Below, in pieces: positions 904-11,725 of a stretch of DNA of 64,000 bases. The position numbers and the translations under genes were made by a program. Source of the stretch: Coraliomargaritaceae bacterium (GTDB lineage: Bacteria > Verrucomicrobiota > Verrucomicrobiia > Opitutales > Coraliomargaritaceae); assembly GCA_965656495.1 (NCBI GenBank), contig CBFHKU010000001.1, positions 306,781 through 370,780 on the forward strand. Direction: 5' to 3'. Below the pieces are notes generated by a model. That model saw nothing but the letters and a program-made list of their open reading frames with translations, did no database searches and was not told the DNA's origin. Position 1 is the first letter of the stretch; the number at the start of each line of letters is the position of its first letter.

Positions 904-1527
904 ATGAAAGCCTCAATCACACCACCCACACGATTTTTACTGATTTTTGTCTGCCTCTTGTCGAGCTGGCTGCCAAGTTTGCAAGCACGGATTGGGGAGA
1001 GTCAAAGCACGATTGAGGCGCGCCTCTTTCGTTCCGGCGGGATTGTTTATCGGGATGATGCGACGGAATTGAACCGTCAGCGGGGCATGCCCTATGTGCC
1101 CCATTTGGAACTGATGCCAGACGTGCGTGTGCGGATCTATTTTAAGAGCGCGGATGGTAGCAAACCGAAGTCCTCAGACATGGATCCGAAGCGGTCATCG
1201 CCCGGATGGGACATTCACGTGCTTTATCTCGGGGGACGCTCGGTGATGGAGGTTTATAAGCGCAGCTCTGGCATGACGAAAGTGGAATACAACCAACTGT
1301 TGAAGTTGCAGGCGGGTGGTTCGTATTGGAAAAAGCTGGGACGTCCGGCAGAGGGCGAGAAGCGTTTGTCGATCTTTGGCTGTGATATGGAGCGCGATGA
1401 CGGCTTGGTGCGTGCGAAGGGCGGGGGTTCGCTTTTATTGGTCACCCGTGAATTGGATGAGGAATTGGCGCGCCGGAAGGCGCAGCAGGAGGAAGCGGAC
1501 GCGCCCACAAGCCTCATGGGTTTCTGA
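904..1527 (+). CDS. hypothetical secreted protein
   Basis: C-terminal part of ORF 277..1527. MKASIT... carries a signal-peptide-like hydrophobic stretch ending LQA/RIGES; the upstream part of the ORF is the antisense shadow of dgt. Confidence 0.7.
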   Translation: MKASITPPTRFLLIFVCLLSSWLPSLQARIGESQSTIEARLFRSGGIVYRDDATELNRQRGMPYVPHLELMPDVRVRIYFKSADGSKPKSSDMDPKRSSPGWDIHVLYLGGRSVMEVYKRSSGMTKVEYNQLLKLQAGGSYWKKLGRPAEGEKRLSIFGCDMERDDGLVRAKGGGSLLLVTRELDEELARRKAQQEEADAPTSLMGF

Positions 1528-1609
1528 TTTTCTAGCGCCAACGGTCGCGAAATGAACTTGGGGGTTGAAAAATCCCTCAAGGCGAACTGTGTAGTGTGTA
1601 TAAGATATT

Positions 1610-3076
1610 ATGGCGAAGGACTGGCTAGATGGTATTGATGACAATTACGACGTGGTGGTGGTAGGCTCCGGTTTGGGCGGCCTGACCAGCGCCAATTATC
1701 TCGCCAAGAATGGGCACAAGGTTTTGTTGCTGGAGCACCACTACCAATTCGGGGGCTTGGCGACCTGGTTCAAGCGCCCCGGGGGTCACATCTTTGATAT
1801 CTCGCTGCACGGTTTTCCCTATGGGATGGTGAAATCCTGCCGCAAATACTGGACACGCGAGATCGCCGACTCCATCCACCAGCTTAAGGACGTGCGATTC
1901 ATCAACCCTCAGATGGATGTTTGGACGACCTTTGACCGGGAGGACTTCACGCGGATTTTGGTGGAGGATTTCGGGATTGAGCGCGAAAAGGTGGAAGGGT
2001 TCTACGCGCACCTCGCGCAAATGAATTTCTACGATGAAAATACCCAGACCACCGGTGAAATGTTTGAGGAATTTTTCCCGGGCCGGAGCGATGTGCACCG
2101 GTTATTGATGGAGCCGATTTCGTATGCAAACGGTTCGCACCTGAATGATCCCGCCATCACCTACGGTATTGTTTTTTCGAACTTCATGAACAAGGGGGTC
2201 TTCACCTTCCAGGGAGGGACGGATACCTTGATCAAGAAGATGGTGGCGGAGTTGAAGGCGAACGGTTGCGAGGTGCGCAAATGCGCTTTGGTCGAAGGCC
2301 TTGATATTAAAGACGGTGAAGTGGTCGGGGTCCGCGCCCGCAGTCAAAACACCGGGGAGGAAACCTTTCCCACGCGGCACATCGCAACACGGGCAGTGCT
2401 CTCTAACGCCAATATCCGCAATACCATCGAGCACCTCGCGGGTGAGGAAAATTTCAGCCCGGAATTTCTGGCAGCGGCGAAGGCGGTCCGCAACAACACC
2501 AGTTCCTGTCAAGTCTATATGGGGATTAAAAAAGGCGAAACGATACCCAATATCGGCGACCTTGTTTTTACCTCGGCGGCACCGGAATACTCCATCGCGG
2601 AGTTGACTTCGATCAAGACAACCAGTCACACCTTCTCGGTTTATTACCCTGAAACACGTCCACATTTAAAGGAACCGCGTTACGCCGTAGTGGCTTCATT
2701 GAATGCGCGCTGGGACGAATGGGCCGCGCTCACTGAGGCGGAGTATCAACGCGAGAAAGCACGTTTGTGTGAGGAATGTCTGGAAAGTTTGGAACGCTTC
2801 ATTCCGGGGGTGCGTGATAAAATCGATCATATTGAAGCGGCGACGCCCCGCACCGTGAATCATTATACCAAATCGATGCAGGGCACCTCCTTTGGAACGA
2901 AATTTGAAGGGTTGAAAGTTTCCATGGATTTACCGGAACAGGTGAAGGGTCTTTATCACGCCGGATCGGTAGGGATCATTATGTCCGGCTGGCTGGGCTC
3001 CATGAACTATGGAGTGATCATCGCCAACAAACTCGATAAGTATTTATACGAAACCCGGACTGCGTTAACGCCCTAA
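1610..3076 (+). CDS. NAD(P)/FAD-dependent oxidoreductase, phytoene dehydrogenase-like family
   Basis: N-terminal [11 protein letters not shown]ossmann motif followed by [15 protein letters not shown] and GLYHAGS near the C-terminus. Confidence 0.85.
3012..3076 (+). repeat. left copy of 65-bp direct repeat (3' end of the oxidoreductase gene)
   Basis: 57/65 identical to 9619..9683 by manual alignment. Confidence 0.92.
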
Positions 3077-3144
3077 GTTTTTATTAGAGGACATTGGATA
3101 ATTTTTAGTGGCGCTGCCGGTTGCGGAGTAGAAGCCTTGCAATG

Positions 3145-3209
3145 GCAAAATGCGGAGCGGGGTGACCCGGGGCGTCAGTCCCCGAGTTGAGCCGCGCGAC
3201 TGGTTCTAC
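3145..3209 (-). other. attC site, terminal, core mutated (ATT instead of GTT)
   Basis: Minus strand GTAGAAC-CAGTC-GCGCGGCTCAACTCGGGACTGACGCCCCGGGTCACCCCGC-TCCGC-ATTTTGC. Confidence 0.75.
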
Positions 3210-3658
3210 TCCATTTCTTCACCTAAACCTTCGAGGTCAGCGAGATCTTTCAGTCGACCGCTGCTTCGCTTGTTTTTAACTAAGTCTTCGTAAGCCAGAA
3301 ATGGTATGGCTATACCATCCGCTTCGATTTGTATTCTGTTTTCGTAGCTGTTCGAGAAATCAATGCCTGTGGCTTCTGTTATAACTTCAATTCTCATCGG
3401 TGGTGTCCCCATCCTGAAAGCATTTCCCTTTTCTTTGAAGAAGTCCTTTGAGATACCAGATGGAACACCAAACTCGACTAAGGATTCAATCAGTCCATCC
3501 ACGTTTTCATCTTCAGTGCCAATCCAAATGTCCATATCGCCCGTTGCGCGAACATAGCCATGGACTCCCAGTGCCCAGCCTCCAACGATTAAGTATCTAA
3601 CTTGCTTCTCGTTTAAGATACTCAGGAAATCTCTGAAGTCGTCCGGTAGATGCCGCAT
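3206..3658 (-). CDS. nucleotidyltransferase family protein (DUF6036-like), TA-type cassette
   Basis: YLIVGGWALGVHGYVRATGDMDI motif and C-terminal KRSSGRLKDLADL. Confidence 0.82.
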   Translation of the reverse strand: MRHLPDDFRDFLSILNEKQVRYLIVGGWALGVHGYVRATGDMDIWIGTEDENVDGLIESLVEFGVPSGISKDFFKEKGNAFRMGTPPMRIEVITEATGIDFSNSYENRIQIEADGIAIPFLAYEDLVKNKRSSGRLKDLADLEGLGEEME

Positions 3659-3797
3659 CGCCCCAAAATGCTTCTCTCAATTGCTGAACGCAAGCCAACC
3701 TTTCCTTCATGGTGAGCTGAGAGCAGTCCTTTCGATAGGCTGATTCAGATGAACTCTGCCTGCTAAATTCAATCTGTAGATTCCGTCTTTTCTCCAT
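3597..3797 (-). CDS. small hypothetical partner of the nucleotidyltransferase
   Basis: 66 aa with a T..ERL..V..LRE pattern of the kind seen upstream of such NTases; overlaps the NTase start. Confidence 0.6.
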   Translation of the reverse strand: MEKRRNLQIEFSRQSSSESAYRKDCSQLTMKERLACVQQLREAFWGDAASTGRLQRFPEYLKREAS

Positions 3798-3879
3798 CGT
3801 TCATTGGACGATAGCTGATCAATATTGGGAGTCTACCAAAATGTGAATCATCGCTTGCTTTGAAAGCGTCCATTTTCTT

Positions 3880-3898
3880 GTAGAACGTCAATAGTAGC
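3880..3898 (-). other. half attC site (L'-spacer-R' only)
   Basis: Minus strand GCTACTA-TTGAC-GTTCTAC; GTTCTAC is the exact complement of the GTAGAAC inverse core at 3203..3209. Confidence 0.7.
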
Positions 3899-3977
3899 TT
3901 GTTTCTACAGCATGGATGATTGAGTTCACCGATAAAGCGGGAAGCTAGAGGAAGGTGAGGAACTTTATTCTTTTTTC
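3887..3977 (-). pseudogene. eroded cassette remnant
   Basis: Follows GTTGGCT-GAAAAAAGA with ATA where sibling cassettes have ATG; reads (I)KFLTFL*LPALSVNSIIHAVET and then runs into a half attC. Confidence 0.45.
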
Positions 3978-4033
3978 AGCCAACGTCAGAGGAGTGGCGC
4001 GCCTACGGCGTTGCCTCAAGCGACTTGTTCTGC
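3978..4033 (-). other. attC site
   Basis: Minus strand GCAGAAC-AAGTC-GCTTGAGGCAACGCCGTAGGCGCGCCACTCC-TCTGAC-GTTGGCT; L' box is imperfect. Confidence 0.8.
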
Positions 4034-4034
4034 T

Positions 4035-4598
4035 TTAGTTTTTGATTAGGCGGATGATGCCCCAAACCATTAGGGCAATCAAGGAAATGGAAATGTAGAA
4101 GAACTTGATCGCTAAAATCGGGATTGCTATCGCAATGAACATCAAGTTTCCCAGCAGTGGAGTCCAGAAATTTGGATTCCGTGGCTCTACCCACTCAATA
4201 TTCTGTATTCCTTTTCCTTTGATAGCATCTAGGAAGGCAGTCTTCGTAAAGGGGCCAAGCGGTTCGTTTGTCGTCTTCGGAATCAAAAAATACCATTCTT
4301 TACCGTAGTCGACATTTTCAAAAGTGTCGCCCTCGAAAAGATCCCTGAGAACCCTACCGGCATTCTTGGTGAGAATAAACTCACTCTTCATATCGTAGGC
4401 AACGACAGGCCCGACCTCGGCAAAGTCTTGCGGATACAGAATAAGACTCCCGCCAGTTTGTCCTATACATACCTCCATGCTATTGGCGCGAAAAATCATG
4501 TAGCCATCGCCAATGTCAAGGCTGTAATCATTCCAGCCGGTGGCATGGGCACTGCCTGAAATAGACACCAAGGCGAGAATGGCTAAGATTCGATTCAT
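4035..4598 (-). CDS. cassette-encoded exported protein with C-terminal membrane anchor (DUF3997-like)
   Basis: True start is MNRILAIL at 4598, just after the attC GTT. Signal peptide ends AHA, followed by DYSLDIGDGY; hydrophobic C-terminus. Confidence 0.7.
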   Translation of the reverse strand: MNRILAILALVSISGSAHATGWNDYSLDIGDGYMIFRANSMEVCIGQTGGSLILYPQDFAEVGPVVAYDMKSEFILTKNAGRVLRDLFEGDTFENVDYGKEWYFLIPKTTNEPLGPFTKTAFLDAIKGKGIQNIEWVEPRNPNFWTPLLGNLMFIAIAIPILAIKFFYISISLIALMVWGIIRLIKN

Positions 4599-4606
4599 TT
4601 TCTTTC

Positions 4607-4664
4607 GCAGAACGCGAAGGTGACTCACGCGCGGTAGCGCGTTGAGTCCACCGCCTTGTTGGTC
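4607..4664 (-). other. attC site
   Basis: Minus strand GACCAAC-AAGGC-GGTGGACTCAACGCGCTACCGCGCGTGAGTCACC-TTCGC-GTTCTGC, with the extra-helical base in L''. Confidence 0.92.
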
Positions 4665-4711
4665 ATTGTTTTTTATAGGGCTGAGATGCTCAAATGGCGA
4701 GCAAGCTTTTC

Positions 4712-4747
4712 TTGACGACGCGTGTCGCATGATTTATGACACTCGTC
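4712..4747 (+). promoter_or_regulatory. sigma70-type promoter of the MTase operon containing two GAC-N4-GTC sites
   Basis: TTGACG (4712)-17 bp-TATGAC (4735)-7 bp-ATG (4748); GACgcgtGTC at 4717..4726 and GACactcGTC at 4738..4747. Confidence 0.65.
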
Positions 4748-6439
4748 ATGATGAAAAAGCTCATAAATCCAGTGCTCCAAACCTTGCGCCAGACGCTAGA
4801 AGACAAATTCTTCTACAAGGCTTCAGGCTTCGATGGTCGCACGAAGATTCTCACGATTGGCGAAGACCACGGAGGCACCCGCGACAACGCACTTTGCTTC
4901 GAGGTTTACGCTGGGGCTCCATTCGTTCTCTTTGTGGCGTTCGGTGCCGAAGCTACGAAAATGCTTCGGCAGTGCGCTTTCGACTATGCCTTGGGGACAG
5001 AAACCATCGGAACTGTGGCTTTCTTCGATCAAGAAACAGAGGATTTCGAGGCATTTAGAAGACGCTTTCGCGATAGTGAGTTCGAAGCCGTTAAAGGCAT
5101 CGAATACTACTACAAAGGTTCTGCAGGTGGTGAGATGCGCTTGTTCGAAGATTCTGGCGAATACAAAATGAAAGGCGAACGCGAAGATTCAAAGCTCATT
5201 CCGATCACCAATAAGCTTGAAGACCTTTTCTTCGAAATTCACTCGGTAATGCGGGATATCGACGGGCTTCACGCCGATGCCGCACTAGAAGAACTCTGCA
5301 AGCTCCTCTACCTGAAATCTCATCTTGAGGAGCAAGTGGGCAGTCTGCCTTTTTCTCCCGTCAAGACTTCGTCGTTCGGAACAGTAGAAGAATATGCGTC
5401 TTGTCTCAGAGGGCTATACCGAGAGGCCATAGATTATGATCTTCGAGTGTATCGGCTAAAAATTCCAGAATATGAACGTTCGCGAGGTGTGTTCAATCTG
5501 CCGATCTTTCTTTCAAGTGCGGCTCTAGTTAAAGCTTTTCAGCAAATTGAAGACTTTTCACTCTCTCGAACGGATGCCGATCTTAAGGGACGGGCATTCC
5601 AAAAGGTCCTCACGAAATCAGTGCGGTCAGGCATGGGTCAATACTTCACGCCAGTGCCAGTTTGCCGTTTGATGGTCGGCATCACTAGCCCATCAAGTTC
5701 AGATCTCGTGCTTGATCCTTTCTGCGGTTCAGGCCACTTCCTAACCGAGTCTCTTGCTCACGTGAGGCATTCTGCATCAGATCACACAAAGGAGTATCAT
5801 GAATTCGCATTCGGAAAGCTGCACGGCATCGAAAAGAGTGACCGAATGACTCGGGTAGCCATGACCGATATGCGATTGAATGGAGATGGCCATTCAAACA
5901 TTCGATGCACCGATGCCCTTTTGGAATTCCGCAACTACCCCGATATCAAGCCCGATAGTTTCGATCTAATTCTTACGAATCCACCCTTTGGATCAATTCT
6001 TGGGGTGGAGGCATTTTCTGCTCTTGGGCATTTCGAGCTTTCTGAGAATCGGAAAAAGGTTCCTCTCGAAATCGTAGGACTAGAGCGAGCAATTCAGTTC
6101 CTGCGACCTGGTGGGCGTATTGGAATCGTCCTTCCAGAGAGTGTCTTCAGTGCCGAATCTTGTAGGCACGTTAGAGAATGGCTTTCGAATCATCTCGCAA
6201 TTCGTATTGTGATCGATCTTCCAAACGAGACATTCGCGCCCTTCGGTGCCAACGTTCGAAGCGGGGTGCTTTTTGGACGGAAGCTTAGGCCGGGTGAAAA
6301 AGCTGAGCCGAAGGCCAGGGTTTGCATGATTCGAATTGATAGCCTTGGATACGATGCATCTGGCAGAGACACAGGTGGCTCGGAAGCAGAAGAGGCCGTC
6401 AAGGTAGCATCGGACTTTCTTAGAAAGGAGGGTTGGTAA
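4748..6439 (+). CDS. N6-adenine DNA methyltransferase, HsdM-like M subunit
   Basis: GQYFTP, DPFCGSGHFL (motif I), ILTNPPFG (motif IV), LRPGGRIGIVLP. Start could be 4736, 4748 or 4751. Confidence 0.92.
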   Translation: MMKKLINPVLQTLRQTLEDKFFYKASGFDGRTKILTIGEDHGGTRDNALCFEVYAGAPFVLFVAFGAEATKMLRQCAFDYALGTETIGTVAFFDQETEDFEAFRRRFRDSEFEAVKGIEYYYKGSAGGEMRLFEDSGEYKMKGEREDSKLIPITNKLEDLFFEIHSVMRDIDGLHADAALEELCKLLYLKSHLEEQVGSLPFSPVKTSSFGTVEEYASCLRGLYREAIDYDLRVYRLKIPEYERSRGVFNLPIFLSSAALVKAFQQIEDFSLSRTDADLKGRAFQKVLTKSVRSGMGQYFTPVPVCRLMVGITSPSSSDLVLDPFCGSGHFLTESLAHVRHSASDHTKEYHEFAFGKLHGIEKSDRMTRVAMTDMRLNGDGHSNIRCTDALLEFRNYPDIKPDSFDLILTNPPFGSILGVEAFSALGHFELSENRKKVPLEIVGLERAIQFLRPGGRIGIVLPESVFSAESCRHVREWLSNHLAIRIVIDLPNETFAPFGANVRSGVLFGRKLRPGEKAEPKARVCMIRIDSLGYDASGRDTGGSEAEEAVKVASDFLRKEGW

Positions 6440-7101
6440 TGAAAACTAGAACTATATTGGTCTCTGACCTCTTAGAAGTTGGAAAATGGAGAGCTGATCT
6501 CCACGTTCATTCGGACTCAGAGATCAAATCCGATCGCTTCGAACTACTTGCAATCGGCGAGATAGTCGTTGAGTCTAAGCAAGCAACAGACCCTGCCGAC
6601 GTAGATGGACAGTTTTACTACATCGGACTTGAACATGTTGAACCTGTCACTGGCGATGGTAACGGGATTGAACTTGTTACAGCGGAAAGTGTTCGATCTC
6701 GGTCGAAAATGTTCGAGGAGGGCGACATTCTCTATGGACGACTTCGTCCCTATCTCAGGAAAGCGTTCTTCGTGGAAGGGCTTTACAAGCGAGGACTCTG
6801 CTCGACAGAGTTCGTCGTCTTAAAACCAAAAAAGGACATGATTCTCCCGCTATTCCTTCGAGAAGTCCTAGTGTCTGATATGGTGACTGAACTCGTTACG
6901 CGAATGCAAGGAGGCGCGGCACTCCCTCGAATCTCGTCGAAGGATCTATTAGGTATTAAGGTTCCAGTTCCGCCTTTGTCCTACCAAAAGGAGTGTGTTG
7001 CTAAGATCGAGAAGGCTCGGACTCAGCGCCATGAACTGTTGCAAAGGATCGAAGCACTATCAAAAGAAGGGAGTCGGGTTGTTGAGGAGGTATTCTCGTA
7101 G
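6439..7101 (+). CDS. half-size (single-TRD) specificity subunit, HsdS-like
   Basis: GDILYGRLRPYLRK, STEFVVL and GAALPRIS...VPVPPLSYQ followed by a coiled coil; about 220 aa; ATG overlaps the M stop (TAATG). Confidence 0.88.
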   Translation: MKTRTILVSDLLEVGKWRADLHVHSDSEIKSDRFELLAIGEIVVESKQATDPADVDGQFYYIGLEHVEPVTGDGNGIELVTAESVRSRSKMFEEGDILYGRLRPYLRKAFFVEGLYKRGLCSTEFVVLKPKKDMILPLFLREVLVSDMVTELVTRMQGGAALPRISSKDLLGIKVPVPPLSYQKECVAKIEKARTQRHELLQRIEALSKEGSRVVEEVFS

Positions 7102-7115
7102 TCCAGTCAACACAT

Positions 7116-7910
7116 TCACTTGATGGCTTTTGCGACTCTCGGAAAGTTCCTCGCCATGAAATCGATGAAACGGGCTTTCGTAGCGTCTGACTCATATTCC
7201 CGTTTGAGGATTTCCTTACCCCTGCTGCCACGTGAACCTAGCATTCTCAAAAGCCCGCCGAAGTTTGCGGCATAGGAGACTCCCGATCCTCTGGCAGACT
7301 CAGGCCCAGTTCTCCTTTCGCGGATGCCCGAAGCATTAAGCGGTTCGCCTTTATGGGCACCGTCTTTGACAAAGGTTCCTCCGCGTTCTAGGTGCAGCAC
7401 ATCTCTTAGCTCAGCGATTGGCAGAGCATAGCCGACGAAGTAGTCTAAGATTGCAGGGTAAACATTTTTTGAGCCTTTTTTGTGTTGCGTCCAATCCCAG
7501 AGAAAAACCGCAAGCAGTTCGTTGTGAGCGAACTCGTGCTGAAGTCGGTCAAAATGGGCCTTTGATTCGTCCGCCGAAGCAACCATGGATTTAACTTCAA
7601 TTCGGAACAACTCGCCTTTTTTTGATACAGGATCCCAGTCCCCGTCTGTCAGAACACAAGCGAAATCATTATATTCGTGTCCATAGATCCAGCCAAGCTC
7701 GTAGTCGATGCCGTCTTCAGCCTTCAGAATTCGATTTACCTGAAATCCCCATAACGCTTCGACCACACTACCCATGCCGCTCCCGATGCGGCCTCCTCGC
7801 GTCACAAACATTTTTCGCGTGAAGGCATTTACGGCATCAATCGCTGAATGCGTGCTTGTGATTACTTTTTCAGCAGCTGAGTGCGCGTGGTCTGTAGGTT
7901 TGTCTGGCAT
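7116..7910 (-). CDS. putative Type II restriction endonuclease (PD-(D/E)XK-like)
   Basis: Convergent with M-S inside the same cassette; G..VEAL, YNDFAC and IEVKS fit the E...D...ExK catalytic layout. Confidence 0.7.
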   Translation of the reverse strand: MPDKPTDHAHSAAEKVITSTHSAIDAVNAFTRKMFVTRGGRIGSGMGSVVEALWGFQVNRILKAEDGIDYELGWIYGHEYNDFACVLTDGDWDPVSKKGELFRIEVKSMVASADESKAHFDRLQHEFAHNELLAVFLWDWTQHKKGSKNVYPAILDYFVGYALPIAELRDVLHLERGGTFVKDGAHKGEPLNASGIRERRTGPESARGSGVSYAANFGGLLRMLGSRGSRGKEILKREYESDATKARFIDFMARNFPRVAKAIK

Positions 7911-7928
7911 TTGTGTCTTCTATTTTTT

Positions 7929-7988
7929 GCCCAACGTCAAAGCTCAGGCGCGCGGCTTGTCCGCGTTGCCTGCAGCGTCTTGTTCGGA
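7929..7988 (-). other. attC site
   Basis: Minus strand TCCGAAC-AAGAC-GCTGCAGGCAACGCGGACAAGCCGCGCGCCTGAGC-TTTGAC-GTTGGGC. Confidence 0.92.
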
Positions 7989-8804
7989 TTTTATGGGTTT
8001 AAGGTCTTCAAGTGACATGACGGTGGGACACGGAGTCATTCCTTGAGGAACATCAAATTTCAACTTCAATGTAGATCCCAAGTCAGATGATCCATAGCCG
8101 TGAGCCCATAAAAACAACTCGCAACCAAGGGCAGAGGGCGTAGCAAGTATTCCGCCTTCTACAGGCGGCTCAAAATTTTGCGGACGCCTCTTCTTGAGGC
8201 TGTCACCATTCCCATAGACAAAAGTCTCGATTAAATCCTCTTTGTTAAGACCAAAAAAAGCATGATTAAGAATGGATGATATTTGCTTCATCTCATCTGA
8301 GGTGAACTCCATTGCCGCGAAATACGACGAGAACGGAATCAACACCTCAAGCTTACTTCTGTCATCCATATTGAACTGGAAATCCTGCCCAATGAAGCGG
8401 TCATAGATGCTTCGATAGAATACGTAGTGACTTCTTACTTGGTAGCTAGACAGCCTTGCGACTAGCGAGGACCAAGATGCCCCACGGTCATCACGACTTA
8501 TTTTTGATCGAGATGATGCTAAAACGCCTCCAAAGTATTCTGCCGTAAGCGGGTCACTACAGAATGAACCCTTGTCAAGGACCTCTTTCAAAACTCTGGG
8601 AGGAATTGCTTCTGGTTCTTCGATTTTGTCTCCGAGTTTCTTTTGTGCGTTTTGGAAGATCGCCGAGACGTTATTTACGCGTTGCTCGGTCCAAGATTGG
8701 ATTCCCCCACCGATATATTCGGCCGTGGGGCCCAGCAGCTTTTCTACAAGCTTAGCACCACCTAAAGCAGATCCGAGTATTGCGAGTCCTGTTCCTGGTT
8801 CCAT
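7944..8804 (-). CDS. cassette protein, Abi-alpha/DUF4393-like
   Basis: KLLGPTAEYIG...IPPRVLKEVLDKGSFCSDPLTAEYFGGVLASS...LVARLS resembles the DUF4393 pattern; stop codon lies inside the attC. Confidence 0.6.
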   Translation of the reverse strand: MEPGTGLAILGSALGGAKLVEKLLGPTAEYIGGGIQSWTEQRVNNVSAIFQNAQKKLGDKIEEPEAIPPRVLKEVLDKGSFCSDPLTAEYFGGVLASSRSKISRDDRGASWSSLVARLSSYQVRSHYVFYRSIYDRFIGQDFQFNMDDRSKLEVLIPFSSYFAAMEFTSDEMKQISSILNHAFFGLNKEDLIETFVYGNGDSLKKRRPQNFEPPVEGGILATPSALGCELFLWAHGYGSSDLGSTLKLKFDVPQGMTPCPTVMSLEDLKPIKSEQDAAGNADKPRA

Positions 8805-8814
8805 ATTCTTTTTC

Positions 8815-8881
8815 TCCGAACTTAGAGAGTAGCCGACGCCTAGGCGCAGCCTAGGTGTTGCGCTATCTCGACTGGTTGGCT
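8815..8881 (-). other. attC site
   Basis: Minus strand AGCCAAC-CAGTC-GAGATAGCGCAACACCTAGGCTGCGCCTAGGCGTCGGCTACTC-TCTAA-GTTCGGA. Confidence 0.9.
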
Positions 8882-9421
8882 CTGTTTAGAGAATGTCTCG
8901 TAGGTTAGGCAAGAACCGAATCCAAAAAGACTATAGCTCATGAAAATTAGAATGATACAAAATGCCCTTAGCCTATCACCCCACTTCTCTTTGTCGGAGG
9001 TATATGCGCTCTGGCAAAGATAAGCTCCTCCTGTTGCTGTGGTCGCAGACAATACGCCGAAAACGTATAATTCCAAGGAGTTTGCGAGTAGTGAGTAATC
9101 ACCCTTAACATTCCCTAAAAATGTCAAACAGGCAACAGCAGCACCTCCATTGATGAGTATAGCACTTCTTAATGCTAAGCCACTCAACGTGATGGTGGCA
9201 TTAAGCATTACTCTGTCGGTTTCTCTATTTTCCTTCCAGTTCTCTAGATCTGATTTGTGATTTAATTCAACACAAAGCCTATCTGATTCGTTTTCTTCTG
9301 CTACGAAACGTTTGTATAGCTTCCGAAGGGTATCGATCATGAAGTCGATTTTAACTGCTCCAGAGCCTTCCTTTTTCTTTTCTTTTAGGAGGTCTGCTAA
9401 CTGTTTGATGTCTTCGCTCAT
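8840..9421 (-). CDS. cassette membrane protein (charged N-terminal half, 3 predicted TM helices)
   Basis: 193-aa ORF in the first cassette; hydrophobic segments in the C-terminal half; stop inside the attC. Confidence 0.7.
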   Translation of the reverse strand: MSEDIKQLADLLKEKKKEGSGAVKIDFMIDTLRKLYKRFVAEENESDRLCVELNHKSDLENWKENRETDRVMLNATITLSGLALRSAILINGGAAVACLTFLGNVKGDYSLLANSLELYVFGVLSATTATGGAYLCQSAYTSDKEKWGDRLRAFCIILIFMSYSLFGFGSCLTYETFSKQSQPVEIAQHLGCA

Positions 9422-9618
9422 ATTCTTTTAGCTAAACAGTTATTATCAGGTTTTCAGATAACCACAAAAAAATTGATAGTTCAAACTAAAACCCTACTAG
9501 AGAATGGGTTATATGCTTGACGGATATCATGCACCCACTGCCCGCAAAACTACTTGCCGGCTAGCGTGGGCGTCTCAATGAGGCTGATGTCGGAGCGGGT
9601 CAATAACCGCACTAACTT

Positions 9619-9683
9619 GAGTGATTATCGCCAACAAACTCGATAAGTATTTATACGAAACCCAATGTGCCCTCACGCCCTAA
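9619..9683 (+). repeat. right copy of 65-bp direct repeat (displaced 3' end of the oxidoreductase gene)
   Basis: Encodes [20 protein letters not shown] versus [20 protein letters not shown] at 3014..3076. Confidence 0.92.
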
Positions 9684-9690
9684 ATATTAA

Positions 9691-10206
9691 TTAGGGGGCA
9701 TCGGGTATTTTAAAACGGAGCTGCCGGTCACGGAGTTGAAGTTTGGGGGCGGCGAAACTGCTCTTACTGGGCGCACAGGCAGGCAAGCCGAGCAATAGGT
9801 TGCGCGTGTTTTGGTCAATATCCCAGGGGCTTTGGTTGCTTAACTGACTGAAGTAACTCGTTGTGATCAACTTAAATTTGATTTCCTTCATAATCACGCT
9901 GAGTGCTTCTCTTAGGGCTTTGACATCGGAAGACTCCTGCCTCTCCGTTGGTTGAATGGCCTGAAAGGCAAACCAAGAGGGGAGTTCATTGAGGTAATCC
10001 AGTTCGGAGTAAGTTGGAAATAAACGGTATACAATTTCTGAGATGTGTAGATCATCATTTGCGCTGGGCAAGAAACGCACAGGAGTTTGCTCAAGAGAGA
10101 AACCGACTTTGGGTGGTTGCTGGATTTGGGCTCTGAGTGGGGGAATAAAAAATGGACTGAGCGCAAGGCACGCAATTAGGTTAATCTTTAATAAGTAAAT
10201 ATACAT
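9691..10206 (-). CDS. hypothetical secreted protein
   Basis: 171-aa ORF with a signal-peptide-like N-terminus, downstream of a very AT-rich upstream region. Confidence 0.5.
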   Translation of the reverse strand: MYIYLLKINLIACLALSPFFIPPLRAQIQQPPKVGFSLEQTPVRFLPSANDDLHISEIVYRLFPTYSELDYLNELPSWFAFQAIQPTERQESSDVKALREALSVIMKEIKFKLITTSYFSQLSNQSPWDIDQNTRNLLLGLPACAPSKSSFAAPKLQLRDRQLRFKIPDAP

Positions 10207-10357
10207 GGCCGTACAGGGTGTTAGGCCATTATTTTAATCACATATACTAAAAAAACACTAATACATAAGTAATAAAACAAATATAATGGGTTTATAAACT
10301 TATATATATAAACTTATTAATTTTTTATTAATATAAATCAAAGTGAGTAGTCGGTAC

Positions 10358-10384
10358 AAAAAAAGCCGCTGCATGTGGAGCGGC
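10358..10384 (-). terminator. intrinsic terminator
   Basis: Minus strand GCCGCT-ccacatgc-AGCGGC followed by T7. Confidence 0.6.
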
Positions 10385-10654
10385 AAAATGCGAGTTACTG
10401 CATATAGATTTGCAAACATTACCTTGATCTCAAATCCACAGAAGAGGCCGACCAGTTTTGGCTGATCCTCCCCGTGTGCAGCAACCTAACAAAGCTCGAA
10501 AAGAGGGAAGGGCGGTTTGAGGCGGTTAATTACGACGATTGATTACGTGGTAAATCGCTCCCGGATATTTCACTGGTGACCGACGCGCAATTTCCAGAGA
10601 TTCAAATAAATCATTGGGCTGACCCTTTTGGCTCAGGTTCGGCCCCAGTCCTTC

Positions 10655-11230
10655 TCAAAGCTCCCAGCCCATTTCCTCTGCAACACACTCTGCAAAACGA
10701 GGCAGTGTTCGACCCAAGTCCGCAAGAGCACGTTGAGGGCTTATATCACGGCTTTCCGCGATTTCGTGGATACGATTGGTGACGAGTTGCGGGCTGAGTT
10801 CGTAAAGCGTTGCCAAATAGGCCTGAGGATGAACCGCTTCTATGCCCCATACGGTGAGCACGGAAGAGGGGAAGTCTTTCAAATTAAAGGTGCAGATATG
10901 CTGTGCCTGTCCTTTAATCGTCGCAGCCAATACGTGCCGGTCGTCCTCGTCTGGCATTTCTAGAACTGGTATTAAAGGTTCGTATCCGGTTATGATTGCC
11001 TCCGGGAAGTTCCGAGTCACTTCGTTTTGCCAGTGTTGCGCCAGTTCCAAGGGCCAAGGTCGTTTAAGGCGCTCAGTGTGAACGGTGTAAACCTCCCGCA
11101 TAATGTCTGCAGACATCACAGGTGAATAGAGCCGCGGATACTCTGCTAAACGCAACAAGAGGTCACAAACAGCTTGGTTGGCGAGAACATTGGCGTCCAG
11201 ACAGACTCGAAAATCGGCTCGCAGTGACAT
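10655..11230 (-). CDS. PIN domain protein (PIN_3 type), putative toxin
   Basis: VCLDANVL, PDEDDRHVLAA and TFNLKDFP motifs. Confidence 0.88.
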   Translation of the reverse strand: MSLRADFRVCLDANVLANQAVCDLLLRLAEYPRLYSPVMSADIMREVYTVHTERLKRPWPLELAQHWQNEVTRNFPEAIITGYEPLIPVLEMPDEDDRHVLAATIKGQAQHICTFNLKDFPSSVLTVWGIEAVHPQAYLATLYELSPQLVTNRIHEIAESRDISPQRALADLGRTLPRFAECVAEEMGWEL

Positions 11231-11233
11231 GTT

Positions 11234-11689
11234 TTAGTCTCCTGTGTAGTCAGAGTCATATAAACCCGCCTCCTGAACTTTCTTTGTGAGTGCATCCAAT
11301 GTTTTACGACGGGCGGTATCGCGCAATCTCTCATATGTCCGTAAGTCGCTCATATATATTCGGCGATGACTCCCGACGTAGTGGAAAGGGATTTTCTCCT
11401 CTACCAGCAGCTTCACGAGATAAGGGCGAGATACACCGAGATAGTTGGCGGCAGCTTGCGTTGTGAGCACTTCGTTCTCGGCCAAAACTACCACAGATTG
11501 GCCCTTCAACATTGCACGGACAATCTGTGTAAGGTGGTGAAGTAGTGGCTCTGGAAACTGGATATGTGCTCCCTCGCGTCCAAGTAGGACTGGACGTTCG
11601 TCTCCGTTAATTACATCATTGAGCTTAGCCAGCAATTCGCGGTCATGCGCCGACATTGCGGCGATTTGTTTTGTAGCAGTATCTGTCAT
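11234..11689 (-). CDS. excisionase-family (HTH_17) DNA-binding protein, putative antitoxin
   Basis: LTTQAAANYLGVSRPYLVKLL...IPFHYVGSHRRI; lies 3 nt upstream of the PIN gene. Confidence 0.88.
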   Translation of the reverse strand: MTDTATKQIAAMSAHDRELLAKLNDVINGDERPVLLGREGAHIQFPEPLLHHLTQIVRAMLKGQSVVVLAENEVLTTQAAANYLGVSRPYLVKLLVEEKIPFHYVGSHRRIYMSDLRTYERLRDTARRKTLDALTKKVQEAGLYDSDYTGD

Positions 11690-11725
11690 AATAAACGAAA
11701 TAAACAAAATAAACGTAATTAATGC
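11690..11725. promoter_or_regulatory. 9-bp direct repeat array, putative operator
   Basis: AATAAACGA AATAAACAA AATAAACGT AATTAATGC abutting the start codon of the HTH_17 gene. Confidence 0.55.

Follow-up and report, generated by a model that had tools for sequence, protein, structure and literature searches.

A predicted controller-less Type 1 1/2 restriction-modification system carried as a three-gene cassette in an integrase-less attC array of a Coraliomargaritaceae bacterium

The window analyzed here is a 64,000-nucleotide stretch of a Coraliomargaritaceae bacterium genome (assembly GCA_965656495.1, contig CBFHKU010000001.1, positions 306,781 to 370,780 of the forward strand), in which a 3,322-bp gene cassette (4613..7934, minus strand) encodes a restriction-modification (R-M) system composed of a methylase subunit (M), a half-size specificity subunit (S), and a restriction endonuclease (R) convergent on the other two. 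Sequence comparisons identify this unit as a true gene cassette carrying a Type 1 1/2 system, a term applied to the methylases of AhdI, PshAI, and BsaBI (PMC3874165). We consider it fairly probable that it represents a mobile R-M cassette without a controller (C) gene, parked third in an array that lacks an integrase, and self-timed. A preliminary description of this DNA overlooked that the M promoter carries a pair of probable target sites, and that the target probably contains four (N4) rather than five (N5) central bases.

M (4748..6439, plus strand, 563 aa) is a predicted gamma-class N6-adenine methylase (DPFCGSG and NPPF; PF02384, E = 4e-25), the methylase motifs being invariant in 22 homologues. 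S (6439..7101, plus strand, 220 aa) comprises one target-recognition domain (TRD; a single PF01420 stretch), a PVPPL hinge, and a C-terminal helix, and is coupled to M via a TAATG overlap and an AAGGAGG ribosome site. R (7116..7910, minus strand, 264 aa) is a predicted PD-(D/E)xK endonuclease, in which the catalytic residues D82, E105, and K107 are invariant among homologues (656 among 1,315 candidates); its structure model (pLDDT 86.5) has an EcoRV/SwaI/NlaIV-like fold (SwaI, Z 9.3, rmsd 4.5, 141 aligned; NlaIV, Z 8.1; EcoRV, Z 7.1), which bears out the nuclease fold anticipated for this reading frame in the preliminary description. The AhdI-like arrangement claimed there (M, half-S, and convergent R) is likewise supported by the gene layout, by Pfam, and by PADLOC (E = 1e-143 for M, 5e-40 for S, and 5e-66 for R), and all three reading frames are intact in the window. 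The best PADLOC models (MTase_II, 532 positions; Specificity_II, 227; REase_II, 314) are probably AhdI-family models, because their lengths equal that of M.AhdI (532 residues) and half of the S dimer (454) (PMC2878638). A Type I R-M system is ruled out by an R of 264 aa without a helicase motor and an S with one TRD, and MADS by scores of 157 bits against the MAD2 cut-off of 720 and 29.8 against the MAD5 cut-off of 400.

R lacks an 11-aa Cys-rich loop (three cysteines) after residue 185 that is present in 116 of 118 proteins among the matches listed; the two loop-less proteins are P0001 and a fragment of R itself, and P0001 has the same gap as R plus four private residues in common. None of the 31 differences between R and this loop-less sister touches the 104 conserved columns (12.2 expected, P = 5e-8), so the short R is, on this comparison, maintained under purifying selection; every conserved column is retained save the loop and I16V. 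Searches with the R query gave no match among viral contigs or in the phylum sample (400 other genomes), and no close relative of M was found in plasmids. The N-terminal ~120 aa of M (4748-5110) are modelled as a restriction-endonuclease-like alpha/beta fold, as in HsdR/Type IIG N-termini, with middling scores (best Z 7.4, rmsd 3.8, 104 aligned; HsdR N-terminus, Z 6.8); the domain has no obvious catalytic motif, no helix-turn-helix (HTH) among the structure matches listed, and no Pfam or NCBIfam match. An SsoII-like role of M as a fused repressor was rejected on the basis of this nuclease-like model.

The limits of the cassette were defined using an attC box model (R'', L'' with one extra base, L', R') scanned across the whole 64-kb window, together with the ends shared by homologues. 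Three perfect (7/7 L-box) attC sites were identified, all on the minus strand, compared with a mean of 0.1 in 30 Markov shuffles of 3000-10000. The R-M cassette has its own attC at 4607..4664 (minus strand; L boxes 7/7, -13.5 kcal/mol), with the boxes R'' GACCAAC, L'' GGTGGACT, L' AGTCACC, and R' GTTCTGC; the upstream attC (7929..7988, minus strand) belongs to a 286-aa cassette, and its R' box, GTTGGGC, opens the R-M cassette. The preliminary description placed the cassette at 4665-7935; its view of one unit between attC sites stands, while the limits, set by the TT in the upstream core and by the G in the cassette's own attC core, are 4613-7934 and include that attC. As had been claimed, there is no internal attC: within 4670-7925 the scan found 5/7 and 6/7 matches that lie in coding sequence and are at chance level (6/7 shuffle mean 0.63). 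The near match of the flanking cores also holds, GTTGGGC (7935-7929) and GACCAAC (4664-4658) being complementary at 6/7 positions; the cores of neighboring cassettes in the array pair at 7/7. R occupies the usual orientation, its ATG (7910) 18 nt after the core behind an A-rich leader without a -10 conserved in homologues, and M-S are inverted with their own predicted promoter beside the attC, both as previously described.

The array (3135-9618) consists of minus-strand cassettes at the 3' end of a FAD oxidoreductase gene. No integron integrase (IntI) match to TIGR02249 above the cut-off was found in the assembled genome (31 contigs, less 8,000 bases), a tblastn search of the same genome with an IntI gave just two XerC/D-like matches, and IntI was found in none of the 6/6 same-genus genomes, with IntI present in 40 of the 101 family genomes searched. 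The array is a CALIN, i.e., an attC cluster without an integrase. With no IntI in this genome or its same-genus relatives, the array cannot at present be shuffled and is therefore frozen unless an integrase arrives from outside. Overlapping contigs of an independent metagenome span 4584-7198 and 7173-9600, and the layout is therefore not an assembly artefact; the sequencing runs containing the cassette DNA are marine or aquatic. Two joints among the contigs matched to the window (3525 to 3839; 9614 back to 3431) have short sides and intervening filler, and coincide with neither attC nor repeat ends.

Homologous loci place the cassette within a wider family. We fetched 35 genome and 45 metagenome loci, several of them near-duplicates; S and M are convergent on R in 32/35 genome loci, the other 3 being cut by contig ends. 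Eighteen loci encode an R that is at least 67% identical; of these, 11 have a core preceding R, an attC or inverse core following M, or both features (L006, L007, L008, L009, L016, L047, L049, L050, L051, L056, and L081; assigned partly by eye), 6 have no cassette ends, and 1 has no flanks. The cassette loci span three phyla, with hosts that include Akkermansiaceae, Trueperaceae, Thiohalocapsa, and Ectothiorhodospira, and the cassette neighbors differ in each host. There are two core types, each with its own complement (GTTGGGC/GCCCAAC in L007 and L047; GTTACGC/GCGTAAC in L049 and L050), the start core and inverse core being 7/7 complementary in all four loci. IntI is adjacent and divergent in 5/80 loci, all in the close clade, and in L016 and L049 the cassette is apparently first after attI; the other 62 loci have no IntI and two chance-level attC matches. 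Two of the cassette loci are disrupted: in L008 the cassette's own attC (10270-10679) is interrupted at the inverse core by a group II intron-like end and the IntI match (3580-4668) is cut short at a 362-aa open reading frame (ORF), both by eye, and in L006 (1698-3681) a 311-aa transposase-like ORF splits IntI.

The M-S promoter is predicted, from the sequence and the homologue alignment, at 4712..4740 (plus strand), with a -35 of TTGACG (4712-4717), a 17-nt spacer, and a -10 of TATGAC (4735-4740), followed after 7 nt by ATG; a scan for strict consensus promoters did not pick it up. Two GAC-N4-GTC sites overlie it: site 1 (4717..4726) overlaps the last base of the -35, and site 2 (4738..4747), 11 bp after site 1, overlaps the -10 and ends just before the start codon. 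The promoter alignment makes 4748 or 4751, rather than 4736, the most likely M start. M is probably leaderless, because in most close homologues the start codon directly adjoins site 2 without a ribosome site.

The twin GAC-N4-GTC pattern occurs once in the cassette's own 2.06-Mb genome and recurs upstream of M throughout the family. Twin GAC..GTC sites with an 11-bp gap precede M in 52 of 57 rows (at most one mismatch; perfect in 32), these rows comprising M with enough flank, window included, after 9 of 66 were dropped as too short. Seventeen are N4+N4, 7 are N4+N5, and 28 are N5+N5, with none N3 or N6; the half-sites are constant and the central bases free to vary, and site 1 is a perfect N4 with a free center in every aligned core-clade promoter. 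A random-window control for the pattern (31/1,320) left real promoters unmasked and was not used. On the R tree, a quick tree on which kin share labels, spacer class changes 5 times compared with 18.9 when shuffled, and the cassette clade falls in N4+N4. The site spacer thus appears to switch along the tree from N5, the AhdI site, to N4, the PshAI site. The seven N4+N5 loci (L014, L018, L055, L065, L074, L079, and L090; one perfect each) lie in two distant parts of the tree, and possibly represent specificity intermediates or dual-spacer enzymes.

Because twin sites with a class-specific spacer recur over the M promoter, the target of the cassette system is probably GACNNNNGTC (the PshAI site, GAC-N4-GTC). 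DrdI (N6), AhdI (N5), and PshAI (N4) have been grouped as GAC..GTC enzymes, and M.PshAI (GAC N4 GTC) appears in Table 3 of the same source (PMC3874165). The simplest reading would be that the promoter carries the enzyme's target, the N5 loci being AhdI-like and the cassette PshAI-like. S length was tried as a marker of N4 versus N5 and rejected when no internal indel was found, and the pDrdI plasmid was rejected as a positive control for promoter sites, none being located 5' of its methylase.

The cassette contains no C gene, as already reported: 18 nt separate the core from R, and there is no HTH ORF. A C-controlled system of the AhdI type is ruled out by this absence and by the lack of a hairpin in the 14-bp gap between S and R. 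Across the family, 139 small ORFs near the R start were scanned; of the 70 loci whose sequence extends 400 nt or more upstream of R, 2 (L029 and L030, both Bacillota) have an HTH_3 C-type gene there; tblastn searches with these two proteins returned no further C genes. Sixty of 62 more distant loci are without a C gene (some with little flank), and C-less systems occupy the family tree far beyond the cassette clade. Absence of C is therefore, as the sequences read, the family norm and predates the cassette, given that the distant loci have no integrase. An 81-82-aa ORF directly 5' of R in four loci (L014:6701-6943, L054:674-919, L055:1783-2028, and L059:629-874) is a possible non-canonical controller.

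The mechanism that we propose draws on AhdI, in which M-S transcription falls ~2-fold in vitro and 4-fold in vivo once the enzyme's own site at the -10 is methylated (PMC2275141); by analogy, M of the cassette is probably damped by its own methylation. An M2S2 assembly, with a stoichiometry suggested by PMC2878638 and by the promoter sites, would methylate the adenines of GACNNNNGTC, and a separate R dimer would cut unmethylated sites, a step that we hold to be highly likely. It is likely, if slightly less so, that through the twin sites over the -35 and -10 the M-S promoter would be strong on entry into a naive cell and lose strength on methylation. More tentatively, early strong M-S transcription may continue antisense through R across the gap between the convergent stops (7102..7115, 14 bp), holding R down; since this gap has no terminator-like hairpin, M-S read-through into R is proposed as the timer. 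As methylation damps the M-S promoter, R would be released, fed by transcription entering from upstream, so that methylation would precede cutting even at the first array position. The integron would confer mobility and set the ceiling of R rather than the delay, and in this genome R output would depend on read-through from upstream. R, having no promoter, would be expected to remain off when the cassette is an excised circle or sits far from the start of an array, with M-S still active.

In AhdI a hairpin separates the convergent units (PMC2275141). The S-R gaps of relatives are mostly <30 bp or overlapping, and among 22 junctions folded, strong hairpins were identified in L029, L031, L035, and L066, and are thus not common to the cassette clade; in two of these, L031 and L035, R is in addition preceded by an 11/12 promoter. 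In metatranscriptome run X19, four contigs all lie in M-S (strand unknown, DNA possible) and none over R, the other cassettes, or flanking host genes; such contigs are uninformative on strand, cannot establish absence, and so give no indication that R is silent. Known controls include promoter methylation and, separately, antisense RNA, and methylation in AhdI acts on the methylase only (PMC12707154, a 2025 review); our literature search turned up no account in which the two are linked as proposed here. Extended to the family, our proposal, held with less confidence than that for the cassette itself, is that AhdI/PshAI systems may be mostly controller-less and timed by a twin-site, methylation-sensitive M promoter whose unterminated transcript silences the convergent R. 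Such a system would be safe behind any promoter, and hence one lineage could have become a three-gene cassette across phyla; the promoter would record an N5-to-N4 switch with N4+N5 intermediates.

Several observations weigh against this reading. The -10 of the window promoter ends in C, not T, the close homologues having TATGAT or TACGAT. The N4 assignment, probable as it is, rests on the promoter sites and not on a comparison with the PshAI sequence, there being no named PshAI protein among the matches listed. The seven N4+N5 loci, and GAT-N4-GTC as the second site in most close homologues, mean that some conserved sites must be non-cognate. S has no internal indel between N4 and N5 loci, being a few residues shorter at its ends, and in the host genome the observed/expected ratio (O/E) of the N4 site is 0.84 (rank 16/64) and that of the N5 site is lower, 0.63, with codon phase dominating both values. 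No GAC-N6-GTC was found upstream of the pDrdI methylase, so the promoter-site rule does not reach that relative. As regards timing, the 81-82-aa ORF is present in four non-integron sister loci, the L014 copy being winged-helix-like by eye (no Pfam match), and L030 has a C gene yet no clear hairpin, with L066 having hairpins without C. Finally, one contig from an independent population has a 1-nt deletion in the 7-T run at 7617 that shifts the R frame.

This frameshift is also consistent with the cassette being a stored or decaying unit, in which M-S is an active methylase and R is nearly silent or being lost, so that timing would be irrelevant. The third position, the lack of an integrase and of a clear array promoter, and the absence from R of a Cys loop that most of the listed matches possess all point the same way. 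We nevertheless regard this as unlikely: the three frames are intact and both promoter sites perfect, and apart from the loop and I16V the conserved columns of R are kept, with purifying selection continuing after the loop was lost.

It is improbable that array position and the integron promoter stand in for the C protein as the timing device, as the preliminary description suggested. The part of that suggestion which stands is that R, promoterless in its cassette, would depend on outside transcription; an excised circle would be expected to transcribe M-S alone, and position-dependent defense has been shown for other cassettes (bioRxiv 10.1101/2024.07.02.601686). The replacement of C by the integron does not stand, because C is rare across the family (2/70 relatives) and equally absent from the 6/18 closest loci that have no cassette ends. 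Moreover, newly inserted cassettes enter at attI, the most expressed position (bioRxiv 10.1101/2024.07.02.601686), and with the cassette apparently first after attI in L016 and L049, position alone cannot give the delay. The missing IntI of this genome and its 6/6 same-genus relatives argues in the same direction.

An AhdI isoschizomer (GACN5GTC), for which the N4 palindromes are operators bound and not methylated by the methylase, is less probable again. Such an enzyme would fit the agreement in length between the best PADLOC models and AhdI (M, 532; S, 227), the seven mixed N4+N5 promoters, the lack of a spacer-length indel inside S, and the under-representation of the N5 site in the host (0.63, a value confounded by codon phase). 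However, neither the window promoter nor those of the core clade contain an N5 site, the perfect N4 site 1 with its free center is retained throughout the aligned core-clade promoters, and PshAI demonstrates N4 in this enzyme class (PMC3874165). We consider it very improbable that R has a weak promoter of its own formed at the attC junction or is controlled by an unlinked regulator of the host. The attC spacer does supply a TTGACG just ahead of the core, but no -10 is properly spaced from it, the best upstream score (8/12 at -92, inside the previous cassette) is at background level, in agreement with the earlier claim that R has no strong promoter of its own, and the junction differs with each neighbor.

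Restriction genes are present in Pseudomonas and Xanthomonas integrons (PacI and XbaI). Defense systems in integrons, including type II R-M, are known (bioRxiv 10.1101/2024.07.02.601686; also bioRxiv 10.1101/2025.06.18.660453), and the cassette that we favor as a self-timed system shares with anti-phage cassettes its compact genes and its storage as an attC cassette. In one survey of 783 systems, integron system types never have >2 components, whereas the cassette described here has three genes, two of them inverted; the survey may count such systems as M+R (bioRxiv 10.1101/2024.07.02.601686). With AhdI of Aeromonas hydrophila it shares a separate M and half-S, a convergent R, and GAC..GTC over the M promoter (PMC2275141, PMC2878638), and it differs from AhdI in having no C gene, C-box, or hairpin between the units, two promoter sites rather than one, N4 rather than N5, a shorter R, and an integron setting. 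With PshAI it would share its predicted target and subunit make-up (PMC3874165).

On plasmids, R has a single match, a 396-aa protein encoded next to an N6-methylase on pDrdI (NZ_CP031163.1; GAC N6 GTC; 29% over 137 aa, E = 7e-12), which we infer, from the plasmid name and neighbors, to be R.DrdI; the N6-methylase is homologous to M. The pDrdI genes are divergent, with a 703-aa methylase, no site of its own 5' of M, and no cassette; the DrdI methylase is described as a fused M~S (PMC3874165). In CfrBI, EcoRI, and Eco29kI, R is timed by own-site methylation or antisense RNA, with divergent overlapping promoters in CfrBI and reverse promoters inside R in EcoRI and Eco29kI; in the cassette, the proposed antisense would instead be M-S read-through from a methylation-sensitive promoter (PMC12707154). 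The literature search, with subscription papers mostly outside it, found no Type 1 1/2 system as a cassette, no twin promoter sites, and no PshAI genes. The components themselves are known. What is new is the lineage of three-gene cassettes, together with the specificity-tracking twin-site promoter, the rarity of C, and the loop-less nuclease.

The remainder of the array is as follows, all on the minus strand. An attI-like AT-rich junction with a terminal GTT core (9426..9445), recognized by its resemblance to the L016 and L049 junctions, has no adjoining integrase. The first cassette (ORF of 193 aa, 8840..9421; attC from the box scan, 8815..8881) and the second (ORF of 286 aa, 7944..8804) encode proteins without a family match. 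Downstream of the R-M cassette, the fourth encodes a 187-aa secreted or membrane protein (4035..4598) and has a degenerate attC (3978..4033; L boxes 4/7 by eye), and the last (3203..3886), whose core matches the inverse core and whose attC is decayed, contains a toxin-antitoxin-like pair of a 66-aa ORF and a DUF6036 nucleotidyltransferase. The insertion is delimited on the plus strand by a 123-bp direct repeat, the left copy (3012..3134) being the 3' end of the FAD oxidoreductase gene and the right copy (9619..9741) being 80% identical to it; no integrase lies within the array so bounded. Genome G011, of the same genus, has an empty site, aligning to 1473-3139 and then to 9619-10331, and its single repeat copy is a hybrid that follows the left repeat as far as the stop codon and switches to the right one beyond it. 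In G008, also of the same genus, the last cassette occupies the same site, preceded by a different cassette; this toxin-antitoxin-like cassette (3206-3797) is common to the window and G008 at 94%.

A 126-bp non-coding element 5' of the array (9455-9580) recurs at 79% at G000:C16:23180-23304, 5' of three short co-oriented ORFs, and may carry the array promoter. Following a series of short ORFs on the minus strand, G000:C7:18984-19033 is an attC-like relative of 8827-8877. The genome has a further R-M pair (L100:2875-4803, G000:C7:26874-28802), which consists of a Dcm-type C5 methylase and a 231-aa ORF with weak GIY-YIG-like matches, and terminates in a perfect attC followed by a 75-aa ORF. An HTH_17 and PIN_3 pair (10655-11707) between the island and a tRNA-Pro-like sequence is absent there in G011, and the left edge of the window cuts a minus-strand dGTP triphosphohydrolase-like ORF (1-850, by eye).

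An R-M system entering a naive cell must methylate before cutting, and integrons insert cassettes at the most expressed position; the cassette is a compact case in which establishment has to succeed with no C protein. AhdI, the textbook circuit, is suggested to be an exception within its own family, and the target of a methylase would be readable from its promoter. Defense cassettes are extended to a three-gene unit with inverted genes, beyond the two-component limit of one survey, and the family yields candidate PshAI-type enzymes as well as a natural nuclease without the family-wide Cys loop.

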